A program made the position numbers and the translations under genes. DNA of 64,000 bases from an uncultured Clostridia bacterium (GTDB lineage Bacteria > Bacillota > Clostridia > Lachnospirales > Lachnospiraceae). The stretch covers positions 3,617-67,616 of the forward strand of contig CAMOUW010000002.1 of assembly GCA_946626755.1 (NCBI GenBank), written 5' to 3'. This document shows positions 17,517 through 48,925 of the stretch, piece by piece (the first letter of the stretch is position 1; every line of letters begins with the position of its first letter). The notes beneath the pieces are model-generated. The model was given only the letters and a program-made list of their open reading frames with translations. It was not told the origin of the DNA and searched no databases.

Positions 17517-17576
17517 AGATAGTAAGATAGTGTTGTTTTTGATAGAAATGCTATGTTTTCGAGGAGGATTTTAGAA

Positions 17577-29137: not shown

Positions 29138-29174
29138 GCGGTTATCTGTTCAGATATGACAGATGACCGCTTTT
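29138..29174 (+). terminator. Rho-independent terminator
   Basis: gcggttatctgt...acagatgaccgc followed by tttt. Confidence 0.65.
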
Positions 29175-29210
29175 GCAATATATGTATTTAAAACAAACGG
29201 AGGAAAAGCC

Positions 29211-29726
29211 ATGGAGGATGCTTACGTAACACTGGCGAGGGAGTCTCTCACCTCATATATTAAAACAGGAAGGAAGACAGGCGTGCCGGATGGTCTGCCT
29301 GCTGAAATGCTTGACAGGCGGGCAGGGGTATTTGTTTCTTTGCATAAGGACGGCGCCCTCAGAGGATGTATAGGAACGATCGCGCCGGTACAGGCTTCCA
29401 TAGCAGAAGAGATCATAGAGAATGCTATCAGCGCTTCCACGAGAGATCCAAGATTTCCCGAGGTAAGAGAAGATGAGATCGATGATCTGGAAATAAGCGT
29501 TGATGTCCTTGGTCCGATGGAAAAGATAAAGGATGAGGCGGAGCTGGATGTGAAACGATACGGGGTTGTGGTCACAAAGGGCTGGCAGAGAGGACTTCTG
29601 CTCCCGAATCTTGAGGGGGTGGACACGGTGCAGTATCAGGTGTCCATAGCAAAGCAAAAAGCAGGGATAGATCCGGCAGATAAAGATGTTGAGCTTCAGA
29701 GGTTTGAGGTTGTACGTCATTTTTGA
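29211..29726 (+). CDS. AMMECR1-domain protein (AmmeMemoRadiSam system protein A)
   Basis: AMMECR1 signature [18 protein letters not shown], plus DPRFPEV and [19 protein letters not shown] at 29211 has an RBS. Confidence 0.88.
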
Positions 29727-29959
29727 TCTGTTATACTGGTAATAACATGTTTGGAAGGCATATATAAAAGATGTTGCGATCTTCGATGCAGAGATGGACT
29801 CAAAATGCAAGAAAATTGTGTGTATTTAACAGAGTTGCAGCCTTTGATGCCGGGATGGATAACTTATTGAGTTTAGTTATGACAAAACCTGCTTTTTGCA
29901 AATTATGAAAAAACACAAGACAATGACAGATGATATATAACTAAAAGGTGAGCATATCT

Positions 29960-30892
29960 ATGAGCAAATGCGATGTATGTTTCAGAAATTGTGATATCCC
30001 CGAAGGAGGTACAGGGTGGTGCCATGCAAGGGGAAACAGGTACGGAGGGATCGTGCCGGTAAATTACGGTATCGTCACCGGGCTTGCCCTTGATCCCATA
30101 GAGAAGAAACCGCTGAACCGGTTTTACCCCGGAAGCAAAATACTGTCTGTAGGCAGCTTCGGGTGCAATCTTAACTGCCCTTTCTGCCAGAATTATGAGA
30201 TAGCAAGGGCTTTTTCAAGTGGAGAGGATTCTGAAGGCTGTAAAGATCGCGGGAAAGCTGCGGGCTTCAAAAACGATCCGGAAATATTATACAGAGATGA
30301 TGACGGTCTGCACCGGTTGAATACAAGATCTGTATCACCTGAAGAACTTGCGGGGATGGCGCTGGAACTAAAAGACAGGGGGAATATCGGTGTTGCATAC
30401 ACCTATAATGAACCGCTGGTGGGTTATGAATACCTGATTGATTGCGCCGGGCTTGTGAGAAAAAACGGTATGAAAAACGTCCTTGTATCTAACGGTTGTG
30501 TGAGTCGTGATGTGGCAGAAAAAGTCATAGGAGCGGTAGATGCAGCAAATATCGACCTGAAGTGCTTTACTGAAAAAGGATACGCCAACCTGCTTGGAGG
30601 GGATATCACATTTACAAAAAACTTTATAGAATCGGCTGCAGGGCGCATTCATCTGGAGATAACGACTCTTATCGTGCCCGGGTTAAACGACAGTGAGGAG
30701 GAGATCAGGCGGGAAGCAGAATGGATAGCCGGATTGAAGGGCGGTGAGGGTGTAAATGTGCCGCTGCATTTAAGCCGTTTCTTCCCCCGGCATAAAATGG
30801 CGGACGCTGAAGCGACGGATGTGGGGATGGTATACCGCTTTGCGGAGATCGCAAGAGAGTATCTTAAATTTGTGTATACAGGGAATTGCTAA
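29960..30892 (+). CDS. AmmeMemoRadiSam system radical SAM enzyme
   Basis: N-terminal Cys cluster (CDVCFRNC...WCHAR), radical SAM motif CNLNCPFCQN and family C-terminus LSRFFPRHKM...YTGNC. Confidence 0.88.
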   Translation: MSKCDVCFRNCDIPEGGTGWCHARGNRYGGIVPVNYGIVTGLALDPIEKKPLNRFYPGSKILSVGSFGCNLNCPFCQNYEIARAFSSGEDSEGCKDRGKAAGFKNDPEILYRDDDGLHRLNTRSVSPEELAGMALELKDRGNIGVAYTYNEPLVGYEYLIDCAGLVRKNGMKNVLVSNGCVSRDVAEKVIGAVDAANIDLKCFTEKGYANLLGGDITFTKNFIESAAGRIHLEITTLIVPGLNDSEEEIRREAEWIAGLKGGEGVNVPLHLSRFFPRHKMADAEATDVGMVYRFAEIAREYLKFVYTGNC

Positions 30893-30945: not shown

Positions 30946-31846
30946 TTACTTCTTCAACATTTTTACCGTAAACAAAACTGCCACCACAGCCGCCGCGGCT
31001 TCAGCCACCGGAAGGGCTATCCATATCAAAACTTCCGCATCCGGCAGACGGCTGAATAGGAAAGCGAGAGGAAGGGGTATTATAAGCAGCCGCAACAGAG
31101 ACACTACAAGTGAAGGAATTCCCCGGTTCAGAGCCTGAAATACTCCCTGGAGAGCCATATTTACACCCACACACAAAAATCCGATGGCTGCGATACGCAT
31201 GGCTCTTATACAAAGAAGGGCAGAGTGATCCGACACACCGAACATGGAAGTCAGTTGTGGCGCAAATACCTCAAATGCAAATGTACCTGCGCACATTACA
31301 ATGCAGCAAAACAAAACGCCCTAACGAGAGCCTGCAAGAACCCTGTCCTTTTTTCCTGCGCCGTAGTTATAAGCAACGACCGGAGAGATGACATCCCTGA
31401 GTCCGAAAAGAGCATACAGTAAGAATTGTTGCATCTTGAAAAACACTCCGTAGGCAGTAACGGCAGCCACTGATACAGAGCCGAAAATGAGATTCAGACC
31501 GTAGGACATGACCGATAGCAGCCCCTGCATGAGGATGGCCGGTCCCGCGATCTTAAATATCCCTCTTATTATTTCGCCATCCGGCTTAATGTATCCTATT
31601 CCTTTGGGGTATTTCATTATTTTTATGAAAATGCAATGCCGCCGCAACTATCATGGACACGATCTGTCCGATGACCGTAGCTATGGCTGCACCCCTTATG
31701 CCAAGCGCCGGGAATCCCAAAAGGCCGAATATCATAATGGGATCAAGGACAAGGTTGGTGAGGGCGCCGCATATCTGGGCTATGGTGGAGTATATGGTCT
31801 TTCCCGTTGCCTGCAACAGTTTTTCATATAATCTGAAACCTCGCAT
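30946..31846 (-). pseudogene. MATE efflux transporter pseudogene (N-terminal about 130 codons missing, one frameshift and one stop)
   Basis: Three consecutive minus-strand ORF pieces (31846-31586, 31647-31321, 31314-30946) together read as TM5-TM12 of a MATE protein. Confidence 0.8.
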
Positions 31847-32186: not shown

Positions 32187-33215
32187 TTATCTGTAAAGCT
32201 TCCGGTAATACGCAGGATTAAATCCTGTGTGTTTTCTGAAAAATTCCGTAAAACTGCCGGGTTTTTTAAAGCCGGTGCGGTCTGCGATCTCTTTTATCGT
32301 AAGGTCGGTGGAAATTAGGAATAAACGGGACTTTTCTATAAGAATACTGTTTCTGTATTCAGAAACAGTACATCCCGTCACCTGTTTAAATGTGTATTTC
32401 AGCTTTGCAGGACTCATGCATGCTGTTCTTGCCAGAGCTTCCAAACTGTCTCTTTTTTCGGGAGCATCGCTTAAAAGCCGGGTAAGTTCTGAGATTTTTA
32501 CAATATCCTCACTGCTTACGCTGCTGCCGGGACCGTGGTCTGCAACAGGCCTGCCATCAACGGGCACGACGCCGGTTTCAAGATCTGCGGCTTTCCGCAT
32601 AAGTACAGAGAGGATTTCGTGAAGCTTACTTTCATAAAACAACACAGATTCGCTGCCTATATGCCTTGTCTTATTTAAATGTATCTGTCCGGCTATGATT
32701 GTTATTTCCGGTAAGGAGCCGAAATCGGACACCTTTGACAAGGCGTCGTAGGAAGACTTTATATCCAGTTGAAAAACTTCTTTTACATATCGTATGTATT
32801 TATCGGGATCGATCATAATTACAAATCCTTCAAATGCTTTTCCTGAAGACAGATTAAAAAGCCTTTCTTCAGGGAATCCGCTTATGTATCTTATTGTCCC
32901 CTGATGCAGCACGTGCCCTCTTTCATCTACAGCATTTACCTGAGAGAAACATGTAATGAAATGAAGCCCGGTATTCATGTAAAGATTTATGTTATTTTCC
33001 GGTTTTGTTTCAAAGCAGAAAAAAGCAGCAATGGTTCCCAAAGTGTAAATAAGGCATTTGCCAGCACTATTGTCACTTCCCGGAGTATAAAGATGCAGAT
33101 TGTTGTATGAGACGAAAGTCTTTTCTTTTTGCAGATCAAATGTGTCTGTTATTTTTTTTATTATTTCTTCAAGATTCTTTTTCATGGTTTTCCTGTACAT
33201 TTTTCTTGTATTCAT
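32187..33215 (-). CDS. AraC-family transcriptional regulator (divergent from the pilus operon)
   Basis: C-terminal AraC HTH (LEALARTACMSPAKLKYTFKQVTGCTVSEYRNSILIEKSRLFL...IKEIADRTGFKKPGSFTEFFRKHTGFNP). Confidence 0.85.
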   Translation of the reverse strand: MNTRKMYRKTMKKNLEEIIKKITDTFDLQKEKTFVSYNNLHLYTPGSDNSAGKCLIYTLGTIAAFFCFETKPENNINLYMNTGLHFITCFSQVNAVDERGHVLHQGTIRYISGFPEERLFNLSSGKAFEGFVIMIDPDKYIRYVKEVFQLDIKSSYDALSKVSDFGSLPEITIIAGQIHLNKTRHIGSESVLFYESKLHEILSVLMRKAADLETGVVPVDGRPVADHGPGSSVSSEDIVKISELTRLLSDAPEKRDSLEALARTACMSPAKLKYTFKQVTGCTVSEYRNSILIEKSRLFLISTDLTIKEIADRTGFKKPGSFTEFFRKHTGFNPAYYRKLYR

Positions 33216-33288
33216 GCAACCTTTTTAATTAATACCGCTTTCGGATAATATCCTTCCTCTAACGGCTAAAATAACAGTAAATGTGTTG

Positions 33289-33342
33289 CATTAGCCGCTG
33301 CCAACTGATATACGTATATCCATGAGTTATCCTATGCTAACT
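33289..33342. promoter_or_regulatory. Two copies of the AGTTAG-N6-CTAACT dyad in the AraC/pilus intergenic region
   Basis: cattagccgctgccaact (33289-33306) and agttatcctatgctaact (33325-33342). Confidence 0.55.
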
Positions 33343-33423
33343 ACAAAGGTAATCATATCAGAATAATTTGCGGTTGTGAAGTTTAAATTTAAAAAGGAAA
33401 CGAGGAGGCTATGAAAAGAGAGG

Positions 33424-35259
33424 ATGATGAAAAAGAAAAAGATAGCATGGAAGCGGTTCAGGGCAGGGAAGGTGTCCGCGCTTCTTCTGGCAACGGCTGT
33501 TGCTGCGGCGCCTGTAACGGGACTTGCGGCTGTAACGGCTGAAAATGTGCTTGCAGTGACAGGTTCTGAGATCGCAGAGGACGGTACATATTCTTCTGCA
33601 GTGACTGTCAGCAAGTATAAAAATGGCAAGCTGGATAAGACTTACCGGGGTACGGTTTATGTTTCCGTTGCTGACGGGAAGATTTCAAATATCAACGTCT
33701 ATGCTTCGGATAAGCAGGACAGATTTGATGAGCTTTTAAGAGGTGTGCGGTCAAGCTATATAGGACAGCCTGCTACATTGAGCGGTATAGAGGCGGCTGT
33801 AGATACTGTTTCCTCCGCTACGGCGAAGGGAAGTGCTAACACTTATTCCGAAAAATATTATGTATCAAATCTTACGGATGCGATCGAAAACGCCATAAAA
33901 GGTGCACCGGCGGCAACAACGCCGGACACAACAGGAGCAGATATCCCTGATGGTGTTTACACCGGAAGGGCAGATATGGGTAGCAATGATCATTACATTA
34001 CCCTTAATGTGACTGTTTCAAACGGGAAGATCACGGATATCGCAGTAAATGATGCCGACGGAAATTGGGATAATCTTCTGTCCCAGGTAAAGTCTTCCTA
34101 TATAGGCACAAATGCTGAGGCTGCCAATGTGGATGCGGTGACTTCGGCTACAACACAAGGGTACAGGGAAGCAATTGCCCGGGCGATAAAAAATGCCCTT
34201 GCGGGAAATCCTAATACCGGTGGCACAGGTGATGATCCGGGAGGAAACACAGGAAATTCGGGAGAAAACAGCAGTGGTACCGGGAACAGCTCGGCCGGTG
34301 ACGGATACAGCATAGTCAAAAAAATTAAAAAAGCTGCAAAAGGCGTTACGACACCTGATGCTGTGTTTACATTTACCATGACACCAAAGGACGGAGCGCC
34401 GCAGATAAGCAGTAAGACTATCAGTATAAACGAAGACAGTGACCTGTCGTCTCTTAAAGCCGGTATCGGGCTGACGTCCGAAGATCTCTCAAAGTTTACC
34501 GAAGCCGGGATTTATGAATATATCCTGACTGAGGAAACCGGCAGGCTATCTCCGACGGCAAAAGGAGACATGTCCTACAACACCGGCAACAATTCCTATC
34601 TTGTGCGTTATAAGATCTGGTACAACAACGGTGTGCTTGAACCGGCGGCGGTCACTGTTCATGAGATCAAAAACGGAACGGTATCTGACGAAAAAACGGA
34701 GATTCCTGAGTTCGAAAACTGCTACACGGTATCTTCGCAGCTTACAGTAAGTAAGTCTGTAAAAGGCGAACATGCTGATAAAAACAAAAAGTTTGAGTAC
34801 AGCGTCACATTTACAGAGGATGAGGCAAATGCGGGGTTAAATCTTACTTCAACGGCGGTGCTTAAGAAAAACGGAACCGAAGTGGCGGCAGGCACACAGC
34901 TTGATTACGGCACACAGTACACATTCAGCCTGAGTGACGGGGAGACCGTGCTTTTCACGGTACCGGCGGGGACGGATTATGAACTCATGGAGGCTGCTTC
35001 GGAAAGCTACACCCCTTCTGCAAATGTAGTGACCGATGGAAAGGCTGAAACGAAGTCGGCAGGAACAGGTGCGGCACTTACGGTACAGTCTTACATAGGT
35101 GAAAACGAGAATAAGGCCGAGTTTACCAATACCTATGAGGACAATCCTCTGACGGGGCTGGCAGGCGGTGGAGGACCTTTGTTCATACTGCTGCCTGTCG
35201 GTGCCGGAGCGATAGTACTGCTGGCTTTAGACAGGAAGAGAAGGGCAGCAAAAAAATGA
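33424..35259 (+). CDS. Sortase-anchored pilin-type protein carrying two N-terminal FMN-binding (FMN_bind, ApbE-substrate) domains
   Basis: Signal peptide, then two FMN_bind-like domains with motifs VDTVSSAT (33802-33822) and VDAVTSAT (34132-34152). A G/N/S linker follows, then Spy0128/SpaA-like isopeptide pilin domains (AVFTFTMTPKDGAP, AGIYEYILTEETG, LTVSKSVKG, FTNTY). The sorting signal is NPLTG, a TM helix and DRKRRAAKK. Confidence 0.85.
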   Translation: MMKKKKIAWKRFRAGKVSALLLATAVAAAPVTGLAAVTAENVLAVTGSEIAEDGTYSSAVTVSKYKNGKLDKTYRGTVYVSVADGKISNINVYASDKQDRFDELLRGVRSSYIGQPATLSGIEAAVDTVSSATAKGSANTYSEKYYVSNLTDAIENAIKGAPAATTPDTTGADIPDGVYTGRADMGSNDHYITLNVTVSNGKITDIAVNDADGNWDNLLSQVKSSYIGTNAEAANVDAVTSATTQGYREAIARAIKNALAGNPNTGGTGDDPGGNTGNSGENSSGTGNSSAGDGYSIVKKIKKAAKGVTTPDAVFTFTMTPKDGAPQISSKTISINEDSDLSSLKAGIGLTSEDLSKFTEAGIYEYILTEETGRLSPTAKGDMSYNTGNNSYLVRYKIWYNNGVLEPAAVTVHEIKNGTVSDEKTEIPEFENCYTVSSQLTVSKSVKGEHADKNKKFEYSVTFTEDEANAGLNLTSTAVLKKNGTEVAAGTQLDYGTQYTFSLSDGETVLFTVPAGTDYELMEAASESYTPSANVVTDGKAETKSAGTGAALTVQSYIGENENKAEFTNTYEDNPLTGLAGGGGPLFILLPVGAGAIVLLALDRKRRAAKK

Positions 35260-35291
35260 TGGATATTATAAAATAAAAGGAGATTTATTTG

Positions 35292-37457
35292 ATGAAGAAT
35301 ATATTTACTAAAGGCTTTGCGGCTGCTGTAGGTGTGATGACGGCGGCTGCGTCGGTATTTGGAATGGGTACAGCAAGCACATATGCTGCTGAAAATATAG
35401 CACATACAAAAAGTATAGAAGGAAGCGGTGATGATTATACACTTAAGCTTACCGTAACAGGTAAGGATAAGAAGGATGAAAGTACGATAACGACTACTAC
35501 AAACGGACATGCAGATATTTTGCTGGTACTGGACAGGACCGGATCCATGAGTTCATCCCTTGGAGACGGAACAAGACTGCAGGCTTTGCAGACAGCGGCT
35601 AAAAGCTTTGTATCCGGACTTAAGGATGATGAAGCTTCAAATATATCTGTTGTTACATTCGGAATGACGGACAATGAAGGCAAAACCCCTGTGGATGTGG
35701 CGCAGGGCTGGACTACCGTATCATCCGTAAGCAAGGCAAATATAAACAATATAATTAACGGAATGACGCTGCATAATCCGAACAATGCCTACAATACGAC
35801 ATATTATCCGGGTCTTTCCAAGGCAGATGAACAGCTGACACAGGTCAGCAACACCGGAAACAACAAATATGTAATATTCTTTTCCGACGGCGAGAATTCA
35901 GATTCTTCTTATGGATATAACTTAAGCGGTATGGCAACTACGGTTAAGAGCAAAGCTACCGTATTTACACTGGGCATCCCTGTGGCAGATCCCTGGGGCG
36001 GTATGTTCGGAGGTTCGGCCAGTACTGATCCTGCTGATCTGAAAAACATGGCTTCCTCTGCTGATAAGTATTATTCCATCAACGATGCAAACGCAATGAG
36101 CAACGCATTTACACAGGCACTTCAGGTGATCAAGGAAGAGACGACCATTACAAGCACTCCCATGACAAATGTGACCATAACGGATGTGTTAAGTGATTAT
36201 GTGGAACAGAACGGGGATATAACCGTTTCAGGCAACAGCGGAAAGGTTACTGCACAGTCTGTAAACGGCAAAAATATAAGTGTGACTCTTGATACGATCC
36301 CTGATGGTGAGACGGTGACGGTGTCCATACCCGTTAAGCCTTCACAGGCTGCAAAAGATGCGGCTGATGCTGCGGGTAATACGGACAGTACGTTTAAAAC
36401 CAATAAGGGTGCGACACTTAAGTTTTTCTATAAAGCACAGGAGCAGAATCTGGATTATGCCGAAGAACCGCAGATAACCCTTACCGGTACACAGCACAAC
36501 GATCCCGCAACGAAGCCTTCCGATATCAGCTTTAAGCTTTCCAAGGTTTTAGAGGTTAAGGCGGGTGATAAAACAGTACCGGATGCCACGTTTAAATTTA
36601 CGGCAGTAAGTAATGATGCAGATGCACCCGCAATAACCATAGACGATGTCACATTTACATCAGCGGATACTCTTAATTCGGAAAATAAGGTTAGTAAGGA
36701 AATAAGTTTTGCGCTTCCTGAGGCAGCTGCATTTACAAAGGCAGGTACTTATACCTATACGATCACAGAAACAGCCGATACATATACCGGGGACGGTTTC
36801 ATGACTTATGACGATGCAAGCTATACACTTACGGTGAAGGTTTGCGAAACTGCGCAGGGAATGACCTATGACGACGGTAACGGGACCCATATCGTGCTTG
36901 CAAATGCCGATGGTGACAAGGTCAGCGGACTTGAGTTTAACAATGAGTATGACAAGGATGTAGAAGAGACTACACTGGTTGTAAGTAAGACGGTTGAGGG
37001 GGATCATGCAAATAAGAATCAGGAGTTTGAGTATACGATTTCCTTTACGGATCCCGGGAATGCCAAGGATGTAAAGCCGGCAAGGGGTACGGAGAGTATA
37101 GAGTTTGGCACGGATTATACATTTAAGCTGAAGGACGGGGAGACGGCAGAGTTTTCCCTTCCCGTAGGAACAAAGTATACTATTGTGGAGACAGGTGCGG
37201 ACAGTTATGAAGCAAAAGCAGTGATCACCTGCGGTGACACACAGGATACCAAAAGCGCAGGCGTAGGAGCAGATCTGACTGTAAGTGATGTGACCGCCGT
37301 AAACGGTGTGAACAAGGCGGACTTTACCAATACTTATGTGGATAACCCATTGACAGGACTTGCTAACGGAAAAGGACCTTTGTTTATAATAATTCCCATC
37401 GCAGCAGGAGCAGTGGTTCTGCTTGCGGTAGCCAATAAGAGAAGAGCAAGAAGATAA
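35292..37457 (+). CDS. Pilus tip adhesin candidate: VWA domain followed by isopeptide pilin domains and NPLTG sorting signal
   Basis: Signal peptide, VWA/MIDAS-like ILLVLDRTGSMSS, pilin-domain motifs (ATFKFTAVSNDADAP, AGTYTYTITETAD, VVSKTVEGDHANKN, FTNTY), then NPLTG, a TM helix and KRRARR. Confidence 0.85.
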   Translation: MKNIFTKGFAAAVGVMTAAASVFGMGTASTYAAENIAHTKSIEGSGDDYTLKLTVTGKDKKDESTITTTTNGHADILLVLDRTGSMSSSLGDGTRLQALQTAAKSFVSGLKDDEASNISVVTFGMTDNEGKTPVDVAQGWTTVSSVSKANINNIINGMTLHNPNNAYNTTYYPGLSKADEQLTQVSNTGNNKYVIFFSDGENSDSSYGYNLSGMATTVKSKATVFTLGIPVADPWGGMFGGSASTDPADLKNMASSADKYYSINDANAMSNAFTQALQVIKEETTITSTPMTNVTITDVLSDYVEQNGDITVSGNSGKVTAQSVNGKNISVTLDTIPDGETVTVSIPVKPSQAAKDAADAAGNTDSTFKTNKGATLKFFYKAQEQNLDYAEEPQITLTGTQHNDPATKPSDISFKLSKVLEVKAGDKTVPDATFKFTAVSNDADAPAITIDDVTFTSADTLNSENKVSKEISFALPEAAAFTKAGTYTYTITETADTYTGDGFMTYDDASYTLTVKVCETAQGMTYDDGNGTHIVLANADGDKVSGLEFNNEYDKDVEETTLVVSKTVEGDHANKNQEFEYTISFTDPGNAKDVKPARGTESIEFGTDYTFKLKDGETAEFSLPVGTKYTIVETGADSYEAKAVITCGDTQDTKSAGVGADLTVSDVTAVNGVNKADFTNTYVDNPLTGLANGKGPLFIIIPIAAGAVVLLAVANKRRARR

Positions 37458-37478
37458 AGACACTCTTCGGAGATTGAT

Positions 37479-38351
37479 ATGATATGCAGGATATATAAAA
37501 AACAAATATATATTAAATTCTTATATGCTTTTGTTATCGGATTATTTATCATAATGTTTAATGCAACTATGACCATGGCGTCACAGGTAAAAATTCCAGT
37601 ACGGGTAAATGTGCCTGAATTCGCAACAGAAGGGGCAGTACAGCTGGTGCTTATACCAAAGAGTGAGGACTGCCCCTTGCCGTCAGGTAGTAAAGGGGGT
37701 GAGTGCAGAGTTGTGGCAGATGGTACATTTACAGGGTTTGAAATGGAGTTTTACGGTGCCGGTGATTACAGGTATGAGCTGGTTGCTGAGGCAGTTGAAG
37801 GGTTTGAGTGTCCGGTGTCACAGTATGATCTTCTTGTGCGTGTGAGGCCGGACGATACCTTTCAGGTGGCGGTCTATAACAGATCAGGTGAGAAGTGTGA
37901 GGCAGAATATACATTTACCGGTTCGCAAACAAATGTTAAGGATTTTACGGATGTTGAACCTGAGACCGGGGAAGAGAAGAAGACGGCAGATGATGTGAGA
38001 GAAAATGTTAAGAGTGATGTAACGATTGAAAAAGGTGCACAAGAAGAAAGTCCGGCAGAACAAACAATAACAGGGGACGAAACGGAACCTGCGAAACTGA
38101 AACAGACAGAAGGACAGGCAAATGTGCCGGAAATGAAAATGACAGCGGCGTCATCAGGAACGGCAGAGGGCGTTAAAGCAAAAACGGTCTCAATGGTCGC
38201 ATCGAATACCGTAAATATGCAAAAAACAGGCAGCCGTACATCCCCCGACACAGGTGATAAGGCGGATATTTACCTTCTGCAGATCGCTGCCGTATCTGCC
38301 GGAGTCCTGGTCTTTGCAGTGATGATGTATCTCAGAGGCAAAAAGGAATGA
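37479..38351 (+). CDS. Small pilin-like sortase substrate (base/minor pilin candidate) with SPDTG sorting signal
   Basis: Signal peptide and a single pilin-like Ig domain (GAGDYRYELVAEAVEG...YDLLVRV). An acidic linker is followed by SPDTG, a TM helix and RGKKE. Confidence 0.7.
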   Translation: MICRIYKKQIYIKFLYAFVIGLFIIMFNATMTMASQVKIPVRVNVPEFATEGAVQLVLIPKSEDCPLPSGSKGGECRVVADGTFTGFEMEFYGAGDYRYELVAEAVEGFECPVSQYDLLVRVRPDDTFQVAVYNRSGEKCEAEYTFTGSQTNVKDFTDVEPETGEEKKTADDVRENVKSDVTIEKGAQEESPAEQTITGDETEPAKLKQTEGQANVPEMKMTAASSGTAEGVKAKTVSMVASNTVNMQKTGSRTSPDTGDKADIYLLQIAAVSAGVLVFAVMMYLRGKKE

Positions 38352-38354
38352 TTT

Positions 38355-39212
38355 ATGAACAAAGCGGCACGAAGGATTCTTTACATTTTTGACGAAGTTA
38401 TAAATTTTATAGTTCTTGCTATCTTTGTAGTGCTTACTTTATTTTGCATTTACATTTACACAGACAGCGGGCGGCTGGAAGCGGAAGCGGACACTGCCCG
38501 CTTTGTCCAGTTTAAGCCGGTGGAAAAGGAGCATCTGACATTTACACAGTTATGTGAGAGGAATCCGGATGTGTTCGGCTGGATAAGCATAGATGATACG
38601 GGGGTGGACTATCCGCTGGTTCAGGGCAGGAATAATTCGGAATATGTAAATATGACGCCGGAGCGGACATTTTCCCTGACCGGCAGTATCTTTCTTGATT
38701 ATCGTAATAACAGGAGTCTGACGGATAAGGTATCCGTAATATACGGGCATCATATGGAAAAGGACAGGCTGTTCGGAGGCTTCGATAAGTTTGAGGATAA
38801 GACTTACTTTGTGGAGCATGAAACAGGCAGCATTGTTTTTGATGATATGATTTACGGTATCAGGATTTTTGCGTTCCTTAAGGCGGACGGTTATGATACA
38901 AGCGTATATAATCCCAGGGTTACTGAGGCAGAGTTTCCGGCGTGGAAGGAACATATCATGAGTCTTGCGCTGCAAAAGGGCGAGGTGCCGGGTGACGGTG
39001 CAAGAGTGCTTTTACTTAGTACCTGCGCAAGCATGGATACTAATCAGAGGCTGATACTTGCTGCGGAGCTTGGGGAAGGGGTACCGCTTCCGGATGAAGT
39101 ACCGGAAGGAGTTGCGATCACATGGGCGTGGCCGGTGGCGGTTGCTGTGGCAGCAGGGTGTGCTGTTGTCCTTTTGGTGATTACTATACGTAAAAAACAT
39201 AAGAGAAGATAA
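38355..39212 (+). CDS. srtB: Class B sortase (pilus-associated) with extra C-terminal TM anchor
   Basis: N-terminal TM helix, NPDVFGWISIDDTGVDYPLVQG, GSIFLDYRNN, VIYGHHM and active-site LLLSTC. C-terminal hydrophobic helix followed by RKKHKRR. Confidence 0.85.
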   Translation: MNKAARRILYIFDEVINFIVLAIFVVLTLFCIYIYTDSGRLEAEADTARFVQFKPVEKEHLTFTQLCERNPDVFGWISIDDTGVDYPLVQGRNNSEYVNMTPERTFSLTGSIFLDYRNNRSLTDKVSVIYGHHMEKDRLFGGFDKFEDKTYFVEHETGSIVFDDMIYGIRIFAFLKADGYDTSVYNPRVTEAEFPAWKEHIMSLALQKGEVPGDGARVLLLSTCASMDTNQRLILAAELGEGVPLPDEVPEGVAITWAWPVAVAVAAGCAVVLLVITIRKKHKRR

Positions 39213-39234
39213 AGAATTTACGAACAGGAGTAAT

Positions 39235-39792
39235 ATGAATATCAGAGAGTCATACAGTGCAGATATGATTGAAGAAAAAGAAAATGAGAAAAAAAAGGCC
39301 GCCACATTTACAGGTTCTCTTATCTCATTATTGGTGAAGATTGGGATAATAACCGGTGTTGTAGTTTTTATAGCTTTTTTTGTGTTGAATCTTCACACGG
39401 CTTCGGGTTTAGCCATGAGCCCGTCTGTTAAAGACAGGGATCTGGTCATCACATATCGTTTTGATAAAGATTATGCGGCAAGGGATGTAATCGTACTTGA
39501 TGTTATGGGGGAAAGGCAGGTTCGAAGAGTGGTGGCGGTAAGCGGCGATACGGTGGACGTTACATCTGAGGGTCTGCGTGTAAACGGATACCTGCAGCAG
39601 GAGCAGTATGCGCAGGGGGAGACTCTTGCTTTTGAAAGTGATGTGGAGTATCCGGTTACTTTACAGCCCGGAGAGATTTTTGTACTTGGAGACAACAGGG
39701 AAAAATCCACGGACAGCCGGGTATACGGCCCGGTGAAGGCAAGAGACACGGTAGGGAGTGTAATTGCCGTATTCAGATACCGTGATTTTTGA
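39235..39792 (+). CDS. Signal peptidase I homologue lacking the Ser/Lys catalytic dyad (SipA/LepA-like pilus assembly factor candidate)
   Basis: S26 fold motifs are retained (GDNREKSTDSRVYGPV). The SM-x-PT box reads GLAMSPSV (Ser to Ala). The KR-x-x-G-x-PGD box reads VRRVVAVSGDTV (Lys to Arg). Confidence 0.8.
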   Translation: MNIRESYSADMIEEKENEKKKAATFTGSLISLLVKIGIITGVVVFIAFFVLNLHTASGLAMSPSVKDRDLVITYRFDKDYAARDVIVLDVMGERQVRRVVAVSGDTVDVTSEGLRVNGYLQQEQYAQGETLAFESDVEYPVTLQPGEIFVLGDNREKSTDSRVYGPVKARDTVGSVIAVFRYRDF

Positions 39793-39821
39793 CTGCACGA
39801 TGAAAAAAGCTAAACGACAGC

Positions 39822-40922
39822 TTATTTTCTTACCACAGTTGTGCTGAAAGTGTCTGATGTGAAACTTTCACTGATCCCTTCCGTAACATACAGCATATCT
39901 GTATCATCCATAAGAATGGTCTCAAAATCGTTGCTATGGGATTTCCAGAAATCCAGTGCCTTGTCTCTTCCCATGACGTAAAGAGCAGTGGAGAGGGCAT
40001 CTGCCATTATCGCATCCTTACTGATCACGGTGACGGAGATAAGCCCCTTGTCAGCAGGATATCCGGTGGCAGGATCCATGATGTGATGATAGTACCTGCC
40101 GTCCTGTTTAAAGTTACGTTCATAGCCGCCGGAGGTGATCACGGCTACATCTGATGCGGTAAGTATGCCGATAAAATCCGTATTCTCATAAGGGCTGCTT
40201 ATCCCCACACGCCAGAGACTGCCGTCCGGTTTTGTGCCTAAAAGTTGTACGTTTCCGCCCAGATTTACCATACCGCTTGCAATGCCTTTATCCTTGAAAA
40301 GCTTTATAAGGGCATCTGAAGTATAGCCCTTTGCTATTCCGCCCAGATCTATTTCCATAGCTTTATTTTCAAATTCTATTTCATTCGTTTTTTTGTCAAA
40401 ACTTATTTCTGACAGATCGGTATTTTCCAAAATGTCATTTATTGTATCGGCAGAGGGGACTTTATAATTCTGAGAAATAAAGCCCCACTCTTTAAGAAGG
40501 GGATAAAGGCTTATATTAAAAGCTCCGTCGGTAAGCTGCCATGCTTCCATAGCTTGTTCCAAAAGGTGTGCGGTATCATCGTCAAGAACGGCGGTCTTCT
40601 CTTTGTTTAACTTTGATACAGCGCTGGTTTCTATTTCGGTGGACAGTCTGTTTTCTATGTCATTTACAAGAGATTCGCCTTCCTGTACGACAGCAGCCGC
40701 ATTCTCACCGTATGCAGTAAGAGTCATAAAGGTATCCATGGCAAAAAAAGCTGCCTCTGCAGGTATGGCGGAGACAGTGTTTTTTTCGTTAAGTACTGCA
40801 GTGCTTCCGGCTGCGACAGTTTCCGGAACATCCGGATTATTCTTGGCCGTACAGCCTGTGATGATCATACAACCTGTAAAAACAGGCAATGTAAATGTAA
40901 TAAAAAATCGTTTTGTATTCAT
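39822..40922 (-). CDS. apbE: FAD:protein FMN transferase (ApbE family) lipoprotein
   Basis: Lipobox (VFTGC/ITGC) followed by the ApbE motifs AMDTFMTLTAYG, IDLGGIAKGY, VNLGGNVQLLG, WRVGISSP, AVITSGGYERNF, HHIMDPATGYPA and ADALSTALYVMG. Confidence 0.9.
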   Translation of the reverse strand: MNTKRFFITFTLPVFTGCMIITGCTAKNNPDVPETVAAGSTAVLNEKNTVSAIPAEAAFFAMDTFMTLTAYGENAAAVVQEGESLVNDIENRLSTEIETSAVSKLNKEKTAVLDDDTAHLLEQAMEAWQLTDGAFNISLYPLLKEWGFISQNYKVPSADTINDILENTDLSEISFDKKTNEIEFENKAMEIDLGGIAKGYTSDALIKLFKDKGIASGMVNLGGNVQLLGTKPDGSLWRVGISSPYENTDFIGILTASDVAVITSGGYERNFKQDGRYYHHIMDPATGYPADKGLISVTVISKDAIMADALSTALYVMGRDKALDFWKSHSNDFETILMDDTDMLYVTEGISESFTSDTFSTTVVRK

Positions 40923-41092
40923 ATCTGTTCCGTTTTCCGTTTCTTTATTGTTTTCTGTAAGTATTTTAAATTAATCAAATCAATGTGTATCTTCAATGGT
41001 CTTATGTTAAGACATTTCAAAGCACCCTTCGACCACTCTTCAAGGTAGAGCTTATTAAGGGGATCTACATTGTAACTTTAATAATCTGTCTT

Positions 41093-41617
41093 TTACTGCC
41101 GGCGTTTTTTGGCGGTCGTTATCAAGAATGCATCTGACGGCAAATGCTGCATTACCGAATGTGATATAAGTCCGTTTACAAATCCGCAGACCAGACCTGA
41201 AAAGATAAGCAGCGGAAAATATCCGAAAACATTCAGATTCGACACTACAAAAGATGCAGTTATTACCTGGGCAAGATTGTGTGTTATACCCCCTGCAACG
41301 GAAACACCGATAACAGAAAACAATCCGGTTTTTTTAAGCAATGACATTACGCTCAGGCTTAAAAGGGCGCCTGTCATTGCATACATACATCCAAACATAC
41401 CGCTGAAAAGAAGACCACTGAGTAAAACACGCATAACATTTACGGCAAAGGAATATTTGGTACCTATGCAGTAGAGAGTCATGATGATAACGATATTTGC
41501 AAGTCCGAGCTTTATTCCGGGAATGCCCAGATTAAAGGGAATCAGAAATTCTATATATGAAAATATCATGGCAAGGGACGTAAGTAGTGTTGCCATAGTA
41601 AGACTCTTTGTGTTCAT
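41093..41617 (-). CDS. Gx transporter family protein (Hpre_diP_synt_I-type membrane protein)
   Basis: About 175 aa with 5 TM helices and GIPGIKLGLANIVII, typical of the family found beside ApbE and NusG-II genes. The ATG at 41617 avoids overlap with the upstream gene. Confidence 0.7.
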   Translation of the reverse strand: MNTKSLTMATLLTSLAMIFSYIEFLIPFNLGIPGIKLGLANIVIIMTLYCIGTKYSFAVNVMRVLLSGLLFSGMFGCMYAMTGALLSLSVMSLLKKTGLFSVIGVSVAGGITHNLAQVITASFVVSNLNVFGYFPLLIFSGLVCGFVNGLISHSVMQHLPSDAFLITTAKKRRQ

Positions 41618-41621
41618 TTTT

Positions 41622-41999
41622 TTAACGCGCCACTGCGTCGACCTCCTTCTCATTACCGGTTATCTCAAGCACGACTTTATGGGGCAGGCATACAATGGTC
41701 TCACCATGCTTACCTATGCTGTGTTCATGCACACAGTCAAAGCCGGGACAGTTTGCATTTACCATATCGACCCTTCCGTTCTTTATTTCAAAAGTGTTTA
41801 GATCTTCACCGTTGCTTACGGTCACAGTGGAATCAATGGATGTGTTGTAGGTTCCGTAAAGTTTTCCGTCCACCGTCACTCTGAGAGTCTGTCCTTCAGA
41901 CTTACCCAAAATAAGAACTGCCGACAACCAGATTCCTGCGACCACTATAGCCGCTATAAGTATGATATCTGCCCTTTTTATTATTTTAAACCCACTCAT
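41622..41999 (-). CDS. NusG domain II-containing membrane-anchored protein
   Basis: N-terminal TM helix, then TVDGKLYGTY...NGRVDMVNANCPGFDCVHEHSIGKHGETIVCLPHKVVLEI, which fits the NusG_II/DUF1312 pattern with its Cys pair. Confidence 0.7.
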   Translation of the reverse strand: MSGFKIIKRADIILIAAIVVAGIWLSAVLILGKSEGQTLRVTVDGKLYGTYNTSIDSTVTVSNGEDLNTFEIKNGRVDMVNANCPGFDCVHEHSIGKHGETIVCLPHKVVLEITGNEKEVDAVAR

Positions 42000-42078
42000 A
42001 TCTCTTATGTAAATACGCCGTGTGGCAAAACTGAATTCTGAATTTTATATCAAACAGATTACAGGAATGATCCGCAAT

Positions 42079-42120
42079 TGTTAGAGCGTGCTAACTTGAT
42101 ATAGTTTACCAATGCTAACT
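42079..42120. promoter_or_regulatory. Two copies of the AGTTAG-N6-CTAACT dyad upstream of the NusG-II/Gx/ApbE operon
   Basis: tgttagagcgtgctaact (42079-42096) and agtttaccaatgctaact (42103-42120). Confidence 0.55.
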
Positions 42121-42516
42121 GAAGGTGTCAAGGTGTAAACATGAGGAAAAGTCAACAAAAAAATTGACAATTGCAGATATGAGTTCTGTTTATTATGAAT
42201 GCAAAGAAACCTAAGAAGCAAATAATGTAAAAAGCATTGCTTTGCTTGTTGGTGAGTCATTTAATATACCTGTTCCGTCTTACGAAAGAGTAGAGAATAT
42301 ACTGGATTTTATTATTTGTATGCAGATATTTACACGTAAACCGCAAATTTTATATTTGTCATGGATGAATACACATATCTGCGTAAAACAGCTGAGGGAC
42401 TGGATAACATTTATTATGATGACCATTTACTTTGATTACGGAATCTGCAGGGGGTGTTAAATGTTTGCCTGAAAATACGGTTTCATTTTAAGAATCAGAT
42501 ACTGATAAAGTACATA

Positions 42517-44677: not shown

Positions 44678-45400
44678 ATGGAAGCACGTTTAAAACAGAA
44701 GCTCCTGCCGGTCATAATAATGCTGATCGCCGCTATATCTGCAGCATTTACCGTTGCGGCATGCCAGCCGGCAGCAAAAGATCAAAAGATTGCAGATGTC
44801 AAGGCTGATTACGTCATCACAAAGGTAAAGGGAGATATAAACTGGGAGGACATCCCTGCATTTGATATAGATCAGGTTTTATGGACAGATGATTACGGCA
44901 TAAGAGCAAAGGGACAGCTTTGTTATGACAAGGATAATCTTTATGTACACCTGTCAGCAAAGGAAAAGGATATCCGCGCTGAAAATACGGAGCCTCTTAC
45001 ACCGGTATATGAAGACAGTTGTCTTGAATTTTTCTTCATGCTGGAGGGTGAGGAGAAATACTTCAATTTTGAGACAAATCCAAACGGAGTTTTAAATAAA
45101 CAGGTGGGTATCACAAAAACCGACCGCATTTCGCTTGTGAGAGAGGATGACAAAGAATATTTTGACATCAGGACAGATAGAACTTCAGAAGGTTGGGAAG
45201 TGTATTACAAGATTCCCCTTGAGTTCATGAAGGTGTTCTACCCGGATTATGAGTATAGTGGGGTTTTACTTGCAAATGCGTACAAATGCGGCAACAAGAC
45301 GGTAAATAAGCACTACCTTTCATGGAAGCCTGTGAACAGTGAAAAGCCGAACTTTCATGTCACATCAAGTTTTGGAAGGATGAGTTTTGAGGATCAGTAA
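44678..45400 (+). CDS. Lipoprotein with carbohydrate-binding family 9-like (DOMON-like) domain
   Basis: Lipobox VAACQ, then DNLYVHLSAKE...EDSCLEFFF...YFNFETNPNG...YKCGN, resembling CBM9-like proteins. Confidence 0.55.
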   Translation: MEARLKQKLLPVIIMLIAAISAAFTVAACQPAAKDQKIADVKADYVITKVKGDINWEDIPAFDIDQVLWTDDYGIRAKGQLCYDKDNLYVHLSAKEKDIRAENTEPLTPVYEDSCLEFFFMLEGEEKYFNFETNPNGVLNKQVGITKTDRISLVREDDKEYFDIRTDRTSEGWEVYYKIPLEFMKVFYPDYEYSGVLLANAYKCGNKTVNKHYLSWKPVNSEKPNFHVTSSFGRMSFEDQ

Positions 45401-45449
45401 ATGATCATGCTGTATGACAGCAAAAAATAGATTAAAAAAGGAGACGTAC

Positions 45450-45983
45450 ATGACAGAGAAGATCAACTTAATGGAATATACCGGACACATAGCAAACATG
45501 CTTCCCAAAGGCATATTGCTAAACACCAATGCAGACAAGTTCAATTCCATGGTGATAGGCTGGGGAAACATCGGGACCACCTGGAATATGTCTACATTTG
45601 TGGCGTATGTGAGGGAGAACCGCTATACGAAAGGCTGCATCGACAAAACCGGCGAGTTTTCCGTAAGCATTCCCATTGATGCGCCGGATCCGGACATCAA
45701 CAAAATTTGCGGTTGGAAGTCCGGACGTGATATCGACAAGGTAAATGAAGCGGGACTCACGGTATGCGAGCCCGTTGCATTAAATACGCCGGGGATAAAG
45801 GAATATCCCCTCACTCTGGAATGCAGGGTGCTGCACAAATGTGAGATAGACCTGTCGCAGCTGCCGGAAGAAATAAGAGAAAAGATGTATCCGCAGGATG
45901 TGGAAGGCACATATCCCATGGCAAACAGGGATACACATACGGTGTATACGGCGCAGATCGTGGAGGCGTATATCATAAAATAA
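45450..45983 (+). CDS. Flavin reductase-like (FMN-binding split-barrel) protein
   Basis: LPKGILLNTNADKFNSMVIGWGNIGT and RYTKGCIDKTGEFSVSIP are typical of the flavin_reduct family. ATG at 45450 follows GGAGA. Confidence 0.65.
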   Translation: MTEKINLMEYTGHIANMLPKGILLNTNADKFNSMVIGWGNIGTTWNMSTFVAYVRENRYTKGCIDKTGEFSVSIPIDAPDPDINKICGWKSGRDIDKVNEAGLTVCEPVALNTPGIKEYPLTLECRVLHKCEIDLSQLPEEIREKMYPQDVEGTYPMANRDTHTVYTAQIVEAYIIK

Positions 45984-47631: not shown

Positions 47632-47966
47632 GGGGCGTATTCAGAAAAGCCGCGGTTTATGTACAGGATATAAAAGCCGGAACTTTAGAAGAGACGGATG
47701 AAGGGTATATTTACACATATGACACGGATTATATTTGCGGGGATAATCCTGTAGCTGTCAGTCTTACCTTGCCGATACGTGAAGAAAGCTACAGATCACC
47801 AAGTCTTTTCCCTTTTTTTGACGGACTGATCCCTGAAGGATGGCTTCTCAATGTTATAGTTCACAACTGGAAGACTGATATAAATGACAGATTTGGCCTT
47901 CTTCTCATTTCATGCAGGGATTGTATAGGCGATGTAAGCATAATTCCGGAGGGGGTTGCAAAATGA
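47628..47966 (+). CDS. HipA N-terminal-subdomain protein (HipS-like)
   Basis: Couple_hipA pattern: AAVYVQDIKAGTLEE...YIYTYD...FFDGLIPEGWLL...FGLLLISCRDCIGDVS. Confidence 0.8.
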   Translation: MRGVFRKAAVYVQDIKAGTLEETDEGYIYTYDTDYICGDNPVAVSLTLPIREESYRSPSLFPFFDGLIPEGWLLNVIVHNWKTDINDRFGLLLISCRDCIGDVSIIPEGVAK

Positions 47967-48925
47967 GGTGTTTATGTTGCGGAAAAAAGCTGGGACAAAA
48001 TGCTTCGGAAAAAGAAGTCAGAGTTTCCTGGCATACTAAATGTATAATGAATTTTTTTGGCTCTGAGATTATGCCTGAAATACGCCTTGATACAAATGCG
48101 CTTGAGGATCATGCAAAAAGTGGAGTAGATGCAGGGGTTAGCGTTACAGGCGTGCAAAAAAAAATATCTCTTGGGCTTTCAAAGACCGGAAAAAACAGAC
48201 TTACCATGGTGTATTATCCGGCAGGTTACATTTTAAAGCCCCAAACACATGAATATCCTTACCTTCCGGAGTTTGAATATCTTGCTATGCGCATGGCGAA
48301 AATTGCAGGAATCAAAACGGTGCCCTTTGCCCTGATAAAGGAAAATGATGAACTTGCGTATATTACGACGCGTATAGACAGAAGCAGGCCGGGAGAAGAG
48401 ACAGTTAAGTTTGCCATGGAAGATTTTTGTCAACTTGCCGGAAAAATGACATTTTATAAATATAAGGGATCATATGAGTTGTGTGCCAGAATAGTAAAAA
48501 GTTTTTCATCACAAAAGGGTCTTGATCTGTCGGAAATATTTATAAGAGTAGTTTTTTCTTACATAGTGGGAAATTCGGATATGCATTTGAAAAACTTTTC
48601 CTTGATAGAAAGAGAACCGTCAGGCAGAGACTTTATGCTTTCGCCGGCCTACGACATTTTGCCTGTAAATGTGATCTTGCCGGATGATAAAGATGAAACA
48701 GCGCTTGCGCTGAATGGCAAAAAAAGGAATCTGAGGCGAAAGGATTTTACAGCATTTGCAGAAAGCTGTGATCTAAATAAAAAAACATCAGACAAAATCA
48801 TTGACAAGCTTTGTTCTTATCGTGATAAGTATATTGACGAATGCAATAATTCACTGCTTCCGGATGATCTTATCGAAAAGGAAACGAAGCTTATAGAAAA
48901 GAGGATAGGTAAGTTGTTGCTCTGA
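47963..48925 (+). CDS. HipA-family Ser/Thr kinase core without the N-subdomain (HipT-like toxin)
   Basis: Gly-rich loop SVTGVQKKISL, catalytic loop GNSDMHLKNFSL and SPAYDILP. N-terminal CCGK...H..C element. Couples to the preceding gene through an ATGA overlap. Confidence 0.8.
   Translation: MRCLCCGKKLGQNASEKEVRVSWHTKCIMNFFGSEIMPEIRLDTNALEDHAKSGVDAGVSVTGVQKKISLGLSKTGKNRLTMVYYPAGYILKPQTHEYPYLPEFEYLAMRMAKIAGIKTVPFALIKENDELAYITTRIDRSRPGEETVKFAMEDFCQLAGKMTFYKYKGSYELCARIVKSFSSQKGLDLSEIFIRVVFSYIVGNSDMHLKNFSLIEREPSGRDFMLSPAYDILPVNVILPDDKDETALALNGKKRNLRRKDFTAFAESCDLNKKTSDKIIDKLCSYRDKYIDECNNSLLPDDLIEKETKLIEKRIGKLLL

Follow-up and report, generated by a model that had tools for sequence, protein, structure and literature searches.

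A pilin-like sortase substrate with two flavinylation-type domains, encoded in a pilus operon beside flavin-transfer genes in an uncultured Clostridia bacterium

A gene from an uncultured Clostridia bacterium of the family Lachnospiraceae appears to join two known kinds of system, sortase-assembled pili and extracytosolic flavinylation, in a combination that is probably new, and rare but recurrent. The gene is an open reading frame (ORF) at positions 33424-35259 of a 64,000-nucleotide stretch of contig CAMOUW010000002.1 (assembly GCA_946626755.1), the whole of which we call the window; we call its 611-residue product the FMN-pilin, after flavin mononucleotide (FMN). Its domain architecture, homologies, residue conservation, operon composition and gene linkage can be read directly, and they point to a protein that is probably a subunit of a sortase-assembled pilus of the PI-2/FCT type, displaying covalent flavins for extracytosolic redox chemistry.

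The FMN-pilin begins with a signal peptide and two FMN_bind-type domains; a Gly/Asn/Ser linker joins these to two isopeptide-type pilin domains, after which come an NPLTG sorting signal, a membrane helix and a basic tail. A first-pass annotation, made from the sequence alone, had listed a set of elements in this ORF, and a check of sequence and translation found every one of them where it had been placed. The features of the gene are as follows.

33424-35259, plus strand: FMN-pilin ORF, 611 amino acids, with an alternative start at 33427
33424-33540, plus strand: predicted Sec-type signal peptide, its extent approximate, read from the sequence (pLDDT, the predicted value of the local distance difference test, <50)
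33553-33918, plus strand: FMN_bind-type domain 1, diverged and with insertions (residues ~44-165; Pfam FMN_bind 17 bits, E 0.0096 when scanned alone; pLDDT 86-94)
33802-33822, plus strand: motif 1, DTVSSAT, of flavinylation type (predicted acceptor T133, codon 33820-33822)
33937-34209, plus strand: FMN_bind-type domain 2 (residues ~172-262; Pfam FMN_bind 24.4 bits, cutoff 22)
34132-34152, plus strand: motif 2, DAVTSAT, of flavinylation type (predicted acceptor T243, codon 34150-34152)
34210-34302, plus strand: flexible Gly/Asn/Ser/Thr/Asp linker (residues 263-293; pLDDT <50)
34303-34731, plus strand: pilin N-domain of FctA type (K299, E370, N432; candidate linking Lys K424 at 34693-34695; Pfam FctA over residues 301-435)
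34732-35139, plus strand: pilin C-domain, DUF7601/DUF5979 (triad K444, E523, N569; Pfam DUF7601 54.8 bits over residues 439-570; pLDDT 95-98)
35143-35256, plus strand: cell-wall sorting signal (NPLTG at 35143-35157, membrane helix, RKRRAAKK tail)

Several lines of evidence support reading the N-terminal half as a pair of FMN_bind-type domains with predicted flavin-acceptor threonines, T133 and T243. A Pfam scan of the whole protein missed FMN_bind, which was found only on scanning the domains singly; domain 2 alone then exceeds the threshold, and domain 1 lies below it. By hhalign the two domains match with a probability of 99.4 % (E 5e-21) and with their motifs aligned, which marks domain 1 as a diverged duplicate that has a longer first hairpin than domain 2 and an insertion after the motif. 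We also built a profile from an alignment (A3) of the ~225-residue double FMN_bind module in 18 proteins of differing architectures. Among PDB sequences its best two matches are the FMN-binding domains 8p2a (E 7e-4) and 3o6u (E 1.8e-3), which fall in domain 2, and motif 2 lies in register with the DAVSGAT of 8p2a, the crystal structure of SaFMN3-D2 with FMN bound covalently to Thr (PMC10339131). Run against 5.8 billion proteins, this profile gave 47 matches at E <= 1e-10, all 47 of them annotated as PF04205, with source names that include 'FMN-binding protein' and 'Rnf complex G'. The first-pass claim of two FMN_bind-type domains carrying D-x-x-[ST]-[GS]-A-T sites is supported by these results.

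The motifs themselves are too many for chance. A scan of the window in all six frames for D-x-x-[ST]-[GS]-A-[ST] gave two matches and no more, both in the FMN-pilin, and thus no other motif-bearing ORF; the chance expectation is ~0.5 copies over the six frames and 0.0024 in a protein of 611 residues. The canonical ApbE motif is D-x-x-[S/T]-G-A-[S/T], placed just before the C-terminal helix (PMC12052999). DTVSSAT and DAVTSAT each fit 6 of its 7 positions, including the Asp and the acceptor Thr but not the Gly, and each is rightly placed before such a helix. Conservation extends well beyond the close relatives: the motif Asp and an acceptor hydroxyl (Ser or Thr) are kept in 18/18 homologues of the module, at identities down to 37-49 %; D127 and T133 are invariant in FMN-pilin orthologues, and D237, A242 and T243 in orthologues and module homologues together. 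Motif matches in two further proteins (P0037, P0052) were dismissed as spurious, since they fall within a pilin domain or low-complexity sequence.

The C-terminal half is a pilin body of the FctA/PitB type. Searched against the PDB with phmmer, it retrieves PitB and FctA-domain structures (7w7i, 4s3l, 7f7y). The full-length AlphaFold model has pLDDT >90 across both pilin domains, and Foldseek places this half closest to the shaft pilins PitB (S. oralis, S. pneumoniae) and Spy0128, at E 4e-21 to 1e-16 and with a template-modelling (TM) score of 0.60-0.65 on the target for PitB, with the tip adhesins Cpa, PitA and SpaC scoring below them. The comparison with Spy0128-type pilins that the first-pass annotation had proposed thus returned PitB and Spy0128 as the best structural matches. 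Of its composite label, Spy0128/SpaA-like, the first part stands, as an FctA/PitB/Spy0128-like body; 'SpaA-like' we rejected, as the Pfam SpaA domain (PF17802) found no match in the scan of the FMN-pilin.

Each pilin domain has a Lys, a Glu and an Asn from which one intramolecular isopeptide bond could form, and we predict such a bond in each. They lie in the strands IVKKIKK (K299), EFENCY (N432), LTVSKSVKG (K444) and FTNTY (N569) and in YELMEAA (E523); the catalytic Glu of the N-domain, E370 in YEYILTEE, was missing from the first-pass list. We assessed their conservation in 35 relatives, namely 29 plain pilins of ~350 residues and 6 fusion proteins. In the N-domain, K299 is kept in 26/29, E370 in 27/29 and N432 in 29/29 plain pilins, and K444, E523 and N569 of the C-domain are kept in every plain pilin (29/29); all of these residues are present in 6/6 fusions. 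With the FctA and DUF7601 matches and both triads nearly invariant, the earlier proposal of intramolecular isopeptide domains is supported. In the sorting signal, T577 and G578 are kept in 29/29 plain pilins.

Sortase-built fibres also require a Lys that accepts the neighbouring subunit, which the earlier analysis had suggested looking for. A YPKN pilin motif is absent from the FMN-pilin, as it is from FctA. K424 sits in the loop that leads into the final strand of the N-domain, 8 residues ahead of the isopeptide Asn N432, and 25/29 plain pilins and 6/6 fusions keep it; the linking Lys of Spy0128, K161, lies 7 residues before N168 (PMC7900414). Because K424 is conserved and placed like K161, it is a candidate inter-subunit acceptor. 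The search for a pilin-motif Lys therefore yielded a candidate, with the qualification that the same column holds Gln in S. pneumoniae PitB and Lys also in the VWA-domain protein encoded next to the FMN-pilin.

This neighbour belongs to an operon whose predicted products, with the divergent regulator, are listed below.

32187-33215, minus strand: AraC-family regulator, divergent from the pilus operon (Pfam HTH_18, HTH_AraC)
35289-37457, plus strand: VWA-domain pilin, candidate for the tip adhesin, sharing its two-domain stalk and its sorting signal with the FMN-pilin (Pfam VWA_2, FctA, DUF7601)
37479-38351, plus strand: small third sortase substrate, basal-pilin candidate (one domain, acidic linker, SPDTG-type signal, membrane helix, basic tail)
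38355-39212, plus strand: class-B pilus-type sortase (TIGR03064 145 bits, just below the cutoff of 153.75; best PDB matches 4y4q, 1.9e-42, and 3psq, 1.5e-35)
39235-39792, plus strand: SipA/LepA-like non-catalytic signal-peptidase homologue, putative pilus assembly factor (Pfam Peptidase_S26; best PDB matches SipA 4n31 and LepA 4k8w)

From the FMN-pilin gene through the SipA/LepA-like gene the intergenic gaps are 4-30 bp. The sortase's PDB matches, 4y4q and 3psq, are the pilus polymerases SrtG1 and Spy0129, and, read against the S26 consensus, the SipA/LepA-like protein appears to have its catalytic Ser replaced by Ala (AMSPS) and its Lys by Arg (VRRV). By its predicted gene content the operon is a SipA-dependent, class-B-sortase pilus gene set of PI-2/FCT type, as known from S. 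pyogenes (FCT-2/3/4) and S. pneumoniae (PI-2; PMC7900414, PMC10548224). The small third substrate, which found no match in Pfam or the PDB, has an invariant Lys (GEK), is conserved in four other loci and resembles the FctB basal pilin as described (PMC7900414). A plain shaft pilin is not encoded in the operon. An AraC-family gene lies at the same position in five related loci (L001, L002, L003, L015, L012). A promoter and terminator scan gave matches no commoner than in shuffled sequence; a promoter-like site was seen 5' of the eetA-like gene described below.

The VWA pilin and the FMN-pilin are 39 % identical over ~330 residues (295-610 of the FMN-pilin; E 4e-53), and the DNPLTG...GPLFI sorting region is identical in the two. 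The first-pass annotation had noted this homology and put it at ~170 residues; the homology is real, and its extent was understated. The further suggestion that the two proteins are built for the same polymer fits the shared stalk and sorting region.

The pilus operon adjoins a set of predicted flavin-transfer genes.

39822-40922, minus strand: ApbE flavin transferase, predicted lipoprotein (Pfam ApbE 285.5 bits; the N-terminus ...IITGC reads as a lipobox)
41093-41653, minus strand: EetB-family subunit, energy-coupling factor S-component-like (ECF-S-like) exporter of flavin adenine dinucleotide (FAD) (Pfam PF07456 123 bits)
41622-41999, minus strand: NusG_II-domain membrane protein, EetA-like partner of EetB (Pfam PF07009 90 bits)

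The ApbE gene lies 30 bp past the operon end on the opposite strand. By its NusG_II domain and the position of its gene, the third of these proteins is probably EetA-like. PF07456 is the EetB family; EetB, an ECF-S-like protein, exports FAD and is required for the ApbE-dependent flavinylation of PplA in Listeria, and eetB and eetA colocalise in 3,328 genomes, eetB and apbE in 2,169 (PMC9973259). In the locus of an 87 %-identical FMN-pilin orthologue (L015), the block from the AraC gene to the NusG_II gene is collinear with window positions 32193-42144 at 82-92 % nucleotide identity, with the ApbE gene at the same position; to the left of the block the flank of L015 is unrelated, and to the right the two loci are set apart by a 12.4-kb indel. 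In the locus of a 70 %-identical orthologue (L002) the eetA/eetB pair again adjoins the operon, but behind the AraC gene. A third locus, L003, has a flank too short to judge linkage; among the four loci with informative flanks, three have eetAB or apbE linked to the operon.

An FMN riboswitch (RF00050, 109 bits) at 3343-3460 of the window precedes a riboflavin operon (ribD 3576-4772, ribE 4805-5461, ribBA 5567-6808, ribH 6858-7331), and since this biosynthesis operon is complete, flavin is made by the organism itself; the operon lies 26 kb from the pilus locus. Control of the apbE cassette by an FMN riboswitch was considered and rejected, the only RFN element being the one upstream of ribD. 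An FTR1 iron permease (598 residues) adjoins a P19 Fe2+-transport lipoprotein at 60234-62809, and in Gram-positive bacteria an FMN-binding protein that depends on ApbE is frequently part of P19/FTR1 clusters (PMC8238504); no motif-bearing ORF for this cluster lies within the window, past whose end the cluster may extend. In the L001 locus, a DUF4405/cytochrome-b561-like membrane protein (16927-17634, 35 bits) is encoded ~1 kb downstream of the orthologous pilus operon, past LuxS gene fragments. DUF4405 is a flavinylation-associated family of b-type cytochromes (PMC11334425), and this protein may be a transmembrane electron donor in that genome.

How widespread is the fusion? Each form of it is rare. 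An exhaustive HMMER search of 1.84 billion representatives at 50 % identity found the full fusion in 2 clusters only, P0001, which is identical to the FMN-pilin, and the 45 %-identical P0009; a database clustered at 90 % contains five orthologues, at 58-87 % identity. The uninterrupted fusion ORF occurs in at least six independent metagenome assemblies (45-87 % identity). Among GTDB species representatives a single-protein query found no relative of the FMN-pilin, and a scan with the orthologue alignment found only a 1275-residue VWA relative in Clostridiales bacterium UBA7011; a scan of JGI metagenomes yielded three loci only, all of this distant UBA7011 type, and a word-indexed search with the N-terminal module alone gave one match. 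Nothing informative was found in the gene neighbourhoods of the UBA7011 relative, of P0012, of the distant VWA-pilin P0017 or of P0018, a double module that stands alone. Matches to the pilin half are mostly plain pilins of ~350 residues.

The combination is nonetheless recurrent. At 37-49 % identity, the double FMN_bind module stands at the N-terminus of four large VWA/Cna_B/SpaA/GramPos_pilinBB proteins with LPXTG-type signals (P0012, P0014, P0016, P0032), one of which is encoded in a locus with AraC and sortase genes, and a single FMN_bind domain with a canonical DAVSGAT heads an FctA pilin, P0028; since the module or a single domain heads these different pilus proteins, the fusion of flavin domains to sortase-pilus proteins is recurrent. 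P0028 comes from a locus (L011, 1-6289) with three consecutive paralogous pilins of ~530 residues that have a common Flg_new and FctA stalk and differing N-terminal heads, which suggests a family with interchangeable heads. Full-text literature searches, whose coverage excludes most subscription journals, found no description of a flavinylated sortase substrate or pilin.

The gene is under purifying selection in both halves, the ratio of nonsynonymous to synonymous divergence (dN/dS) being 0.10-0.15 in all four domains in the orthologue comparison; synonymous sites are saturated in the more distant orthologue pairs, and there are no internal stop codons. The linker varies from ~12 to ~75 residues among orthologues. 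Against the L015 gene (5166-7094), synonymous divergence (dS) is strongly mosaic along the gene, at 0.06 for FMN domain 2 and 0.09 for the pilin C-domain but 0.37 for FMN domain 1, 0.76 for the pilin N-domain and 1.5 for the linker, a pattern that suggests intragenic recombination between lineages, commonplace in surface antigens. The signal peptide has a basic N-region, MMKKKKIAWKRFRAGK, followed by a hydrophobic Ala-rich core. The public gene call of the identical protein P0001 has 610 residues and starts at 33427, one codon later than our ORF; in 33396-33430 a strong GGAGG lies 16 nt 5' of the first ATG (33424) and an out-of-frame ATG lies at 33411, and given this spacing and the additional ATG, the start (33424 or 33427) and the ribosome-binding site are ambiguous.

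From this body of observations we infer flavinylation, polymerisation, a place in the fibre, a direction of electron flow and an acceptor, in a mechanism that would run as follows. The two FMN_bind domains would sit on a flexible tether at the N-terminus of a two-domain stalk stabilised by isopeptide bonds. The precursor would be exported by Sec and retained in the membrane via its C-terminal helix, and the neighbouring lipoprotein ApbE would move FMN onto T133 and T243 from FAD, itself exported by the adjacent EetB and EetA-like proteins. The class-B sortase, aided by the non-catalytic SipA homologue, would cut NPLTG after Thr577 and couple this residue to a Lys of the next subunit, for which K424 is the candidate acceptor. 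In the resulting fibre the VWA protein may serve as the adhesive tip and the small third protein as the cell-wall-anchored base, and the covalent flavins would be displayed beyond the peptidoglycan for extracytosolic electron transfer to, for example, iron, flavins or oxygen.

A number of findings weigh against parts of this proposal. Where the shaft is concerned, other instances of the double module are carried by tip-like adhesins, and a bulky N-terminal head is typical of a tip pilin and not of a shaft pilin; moreover, because the candidate linking Lys is present in the VWA neighbour as well, the sequences by themselves cannot decide between the two proteins as the shaft subunit. Where flavinylation is concerned, Ser occupies the canonical Gly position in both motifs, which the looser pattern of the first-pass annotation, matched twice as it claimed, had concealed, and the motif of domain 1 is SSPT, with Pro replacing Ala, in two orthologues; flavinylation efficiency is therefore uncertain, above all in domain 1. 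In the structural comparison with FMN_bind proposed in that annotation, the N-terminal AlphaFold model (pLDDT 76.5) has three strands, helices, the motif loop and a helix, the order expected of FMN_bind, but Foldseek found no significant match for it, with 3o6u, 8p2a and 8p2b at E 0.14-0.27 and target-normalised TM scores of 0.38-0.52, ranked below IscU, and we do not count this search as support for the fold. The flanks available for L001, L002 and L003 contain no ApbE gene. Where electron supply is concerned, Pfam scans of the ORFs of the 64-kb window found no membrane electron-transfer component (Ndh2, Rnf, DUF4405 or another cytochrome), nor Ndh2, ECF-T (FmnA) or quinone-synthesis genes (DmkA/B) of the kind found in the Listeria locus.

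The alternative that survives best, though we think it unlikely, keeps the flavins and moves the protein out of the repeating shaft, making it a flavoprotein on a stalk or at a pilus tip. It would then be either a wall-anchored monomer, a sortase-anchored counterpart of PplA with its Ig-like domains as a spacer through the peptidoglycan, or an alternative tip exchangeable with the VWA protein on a short fibre. Its plan of a head on a two-domain stalk does parallel the VWA neighbour and the 'head' pilins of L011, the double module occupies the distal end of the VWA tip-adhesin-like P0012, P0014, P0016 and P0032, the VWA protein shares the candidate acceptor Lys, and in a further locus (L017) a VWA-pilin is found without a separate small shaft pilin in the available part of the contig. 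Against this, the operon has no plain shaft pilin, and if neither large protein polymerised, the class-B sortase and SipA would have nothing to build; K424 is invariant in the fusions and kept in most of the plain shaft-type pilins; and the nearest structures are shaft pilins.

These last three points, the closest structures, the conserved K424 and an operon without any other shaft candidate, are also those that favour a shaft role, and a stronger form of the proposal can be built on them, which we regard as doubtful. Here the FMN-pilin would be the repeating shaft subunit, and the covalent fibre would bear two covalent flavins, each on a flexible tether, per ~10-11 nm of its length. It would amount to a heme-free 'nanowire' based on flavin, made by a Gram-positive anaerobe, with the VWA tip fastening the fibre to the acceptor surface and electrons moving by collisions of tethered domains or by free flavin shuttles. 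A PitB-type subunit is 110 Å long (PMC10548224). We speculate that, as a flavin spacing of ~11 nm is too far for direct tunnelling, transfer along the fibre would need such collisions or soluble shuttles.

A second alternative, which we hold improbable, is that flavinylation has been lost: the N-terminal domains would be degenerate relatives of FMN_bind serving as a head that binds, for instance, free flavins, a host ligand or a mineral surface, with ApbE and EetAB serving other substrates in the genome. The non-canonical motifs (Gly to Ser at both sites, Ala to Pro in two orthologues), the score of domain 1 under the Pfam cutoff, the Foldseek E-values of FMN_bind structures and the non-adjacency of ApbE in three loci are all compatible with it, and eetB and apbE commonly serve Rnf in Clostridia (PMC9973259). 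On the other side, the acceptor hydroxyl and the motif Asp persist across all 18 homologues of the module, relatives with several FMN_bind domains, P0011 and P0044 among them, have [ST]-S-A-[ST] alternating with canonical [ST]-G-A-[ST] at the equivalent site, and in a model substrate a G-to-A or A-to-V change cuts flavinylation by about half and does not abolish it (PMC12052999). The linkage of eetAB or apbE in three of the four informative loci, and a window with no other motif-bearing ORF, likewise count against this alternative. An assembly or gene-calling artefact, or a functionless decaying chimera, might be suspected from the two clusters in 1.84 billion and the empty single-protein GTDB query, but is so improbable given the same uninterrupted ORF in at least six independent assemblies, the low dN/dS in both halves, the saturated synonymous sites and the lack of internal stops that we rejected it.

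The proposed flavin-displaying pilus shares much with known systems and departs from each of them. Like PitB and FctA/Spy0128 (PI-2 of S. pneumoniae and S. oralis; FCT-2/3/4 of S. pyogenes), the FMN-pilin has a body of two CnaB-type domains, each with its own Lys-Asn isopeptide triad, carries a non-canonical xPxTG sorting signal, lacks YPKN and has a candidate linking Lys before the last strand of the N-domain. As in their operons, its gene is accompanied by those for a class-B sortase, a SipA/LepA homologue predicted to be non-catalytic, candidates for a large tip adhesin and a small basal pilin, and a regulator of AraC type (PMC7900414, PMC10548224). Unlike the described pilins, with identity to PitB at ~22-23 %, it has ~250 extra N-terminal residues comprising the two FMN_bind domains and the flexible linker, and its operon is linked to apbE and eetAB; its candidate tip protein has a VWA domain, whereas Cpa has thioester domains. 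PplA of Listeria monocytogenes likewise is extracytosolic, has two FMN_bind domains and is encoded beside an ApbE-type transferase, EetB and an EetA partner (PMC9973259). PplA, however, is a membrane-tethered lipoprotein, whereas the FMN-pilin, without a lipobox, has a pilin stalk and the signal of a sortase substrate, and of the Listeria locus for flavin-based extracellular electron transfer (PplA, FmnB, EetA, EetB, FmnA, Ndh2, DmkA/B) the window has only the equivalents of ApbE, EetB and EetA.

Tandem FMN_bind domains in a secreted Gram-positive protein also recall the multi-flavinylated 'beads-on-a-string' proteins such as SaFMN3 and CbFMN4, and domain 2 aligns to SaFMN3-D2. Such multi-flavinylated proteins were reportedly described by Meheust et al. 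in 2021 and Huang et al. in 2024, and SaFMN3 and CbFMN4 by Tong et al. in 2023. They are sometimes encoded beside SLH, Rib, FIVAR or LysM proteins and have prompted a speculative nanowire analogy (PMC8238504, PMC11334425). Their multiplicity comes from repeats within a chain and their wall association from the SLH, Rib, FIVAR or LysM neighbours (PMC8238504), whereas here sortase polymerisation of a two-flavin subunit would supply the multiplicity. The Ebp pili of Enterococcus faecalis (Ho et al. 2025, PMC11878085) are likewise assembled by sortase, have a VWA/MIDAS tip adhesin and contribute to extracellular electron transfer (EET); Ebp aids EET purely by adhesion to iron oxide, with the flavoprotein PplA as a separate membrane protein, whereas here the redox domains would lie within the pilus subunit.

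Elsewhere in the window, three short overlapping ORFs at 30946-31846 on the minus strand, left of the AraC gene where the similarity to L015 ends, resemble in translation fragments of a MATE-family transporter and are probably a disrupted gene. The ~12.4 kb absent from L015 (42144-54517), an indel between related genomes, holds genes for a MatE transporter, a CBM9-like lipoprotein (44678-45400), a Flavin_Reduct protein (45414-45983), a WYL-domain regulator and a HipA-like toxin kinase (47912-48925), among others. What looks like a trio of AmmeMemoRadiSam type (LigB/Memo-like, AMMECR1 and radical SAM) is split between 19309-20112 and 29163-30892, 9 kb apart, and is unrelated to the FMN-pilin.

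The FMN-pilin bears on an open problem, namely how Gram-positive bacteria move electrons across and beyond a thick wall without multi-heme cytochromes. The known flavin-based system stops at the membrane-tethered PplA and depends on diffusible shuttles, and to our knowledge no earlier case of a sortase pilus with a built-in cofactor function, rather than a purely adhesive one, has been reported. Longer-distance action of multi-flavinylated proteins has so far been a matter of speculation only (PMC8238504), and the FMN-pilin offers a concrete candidate for redox chemistry away from the cell that is testable genetically and biochemically. If the proposal is true, a self-polymerising, isopeptide-stabilised, flavin-loadable fibre would be an attractive bioelectronic scaffold. 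The scope extends beyond one gene, the double flavin module being fused to several classes of sortase-anchored pilus proteins in uncultured Clostridia.

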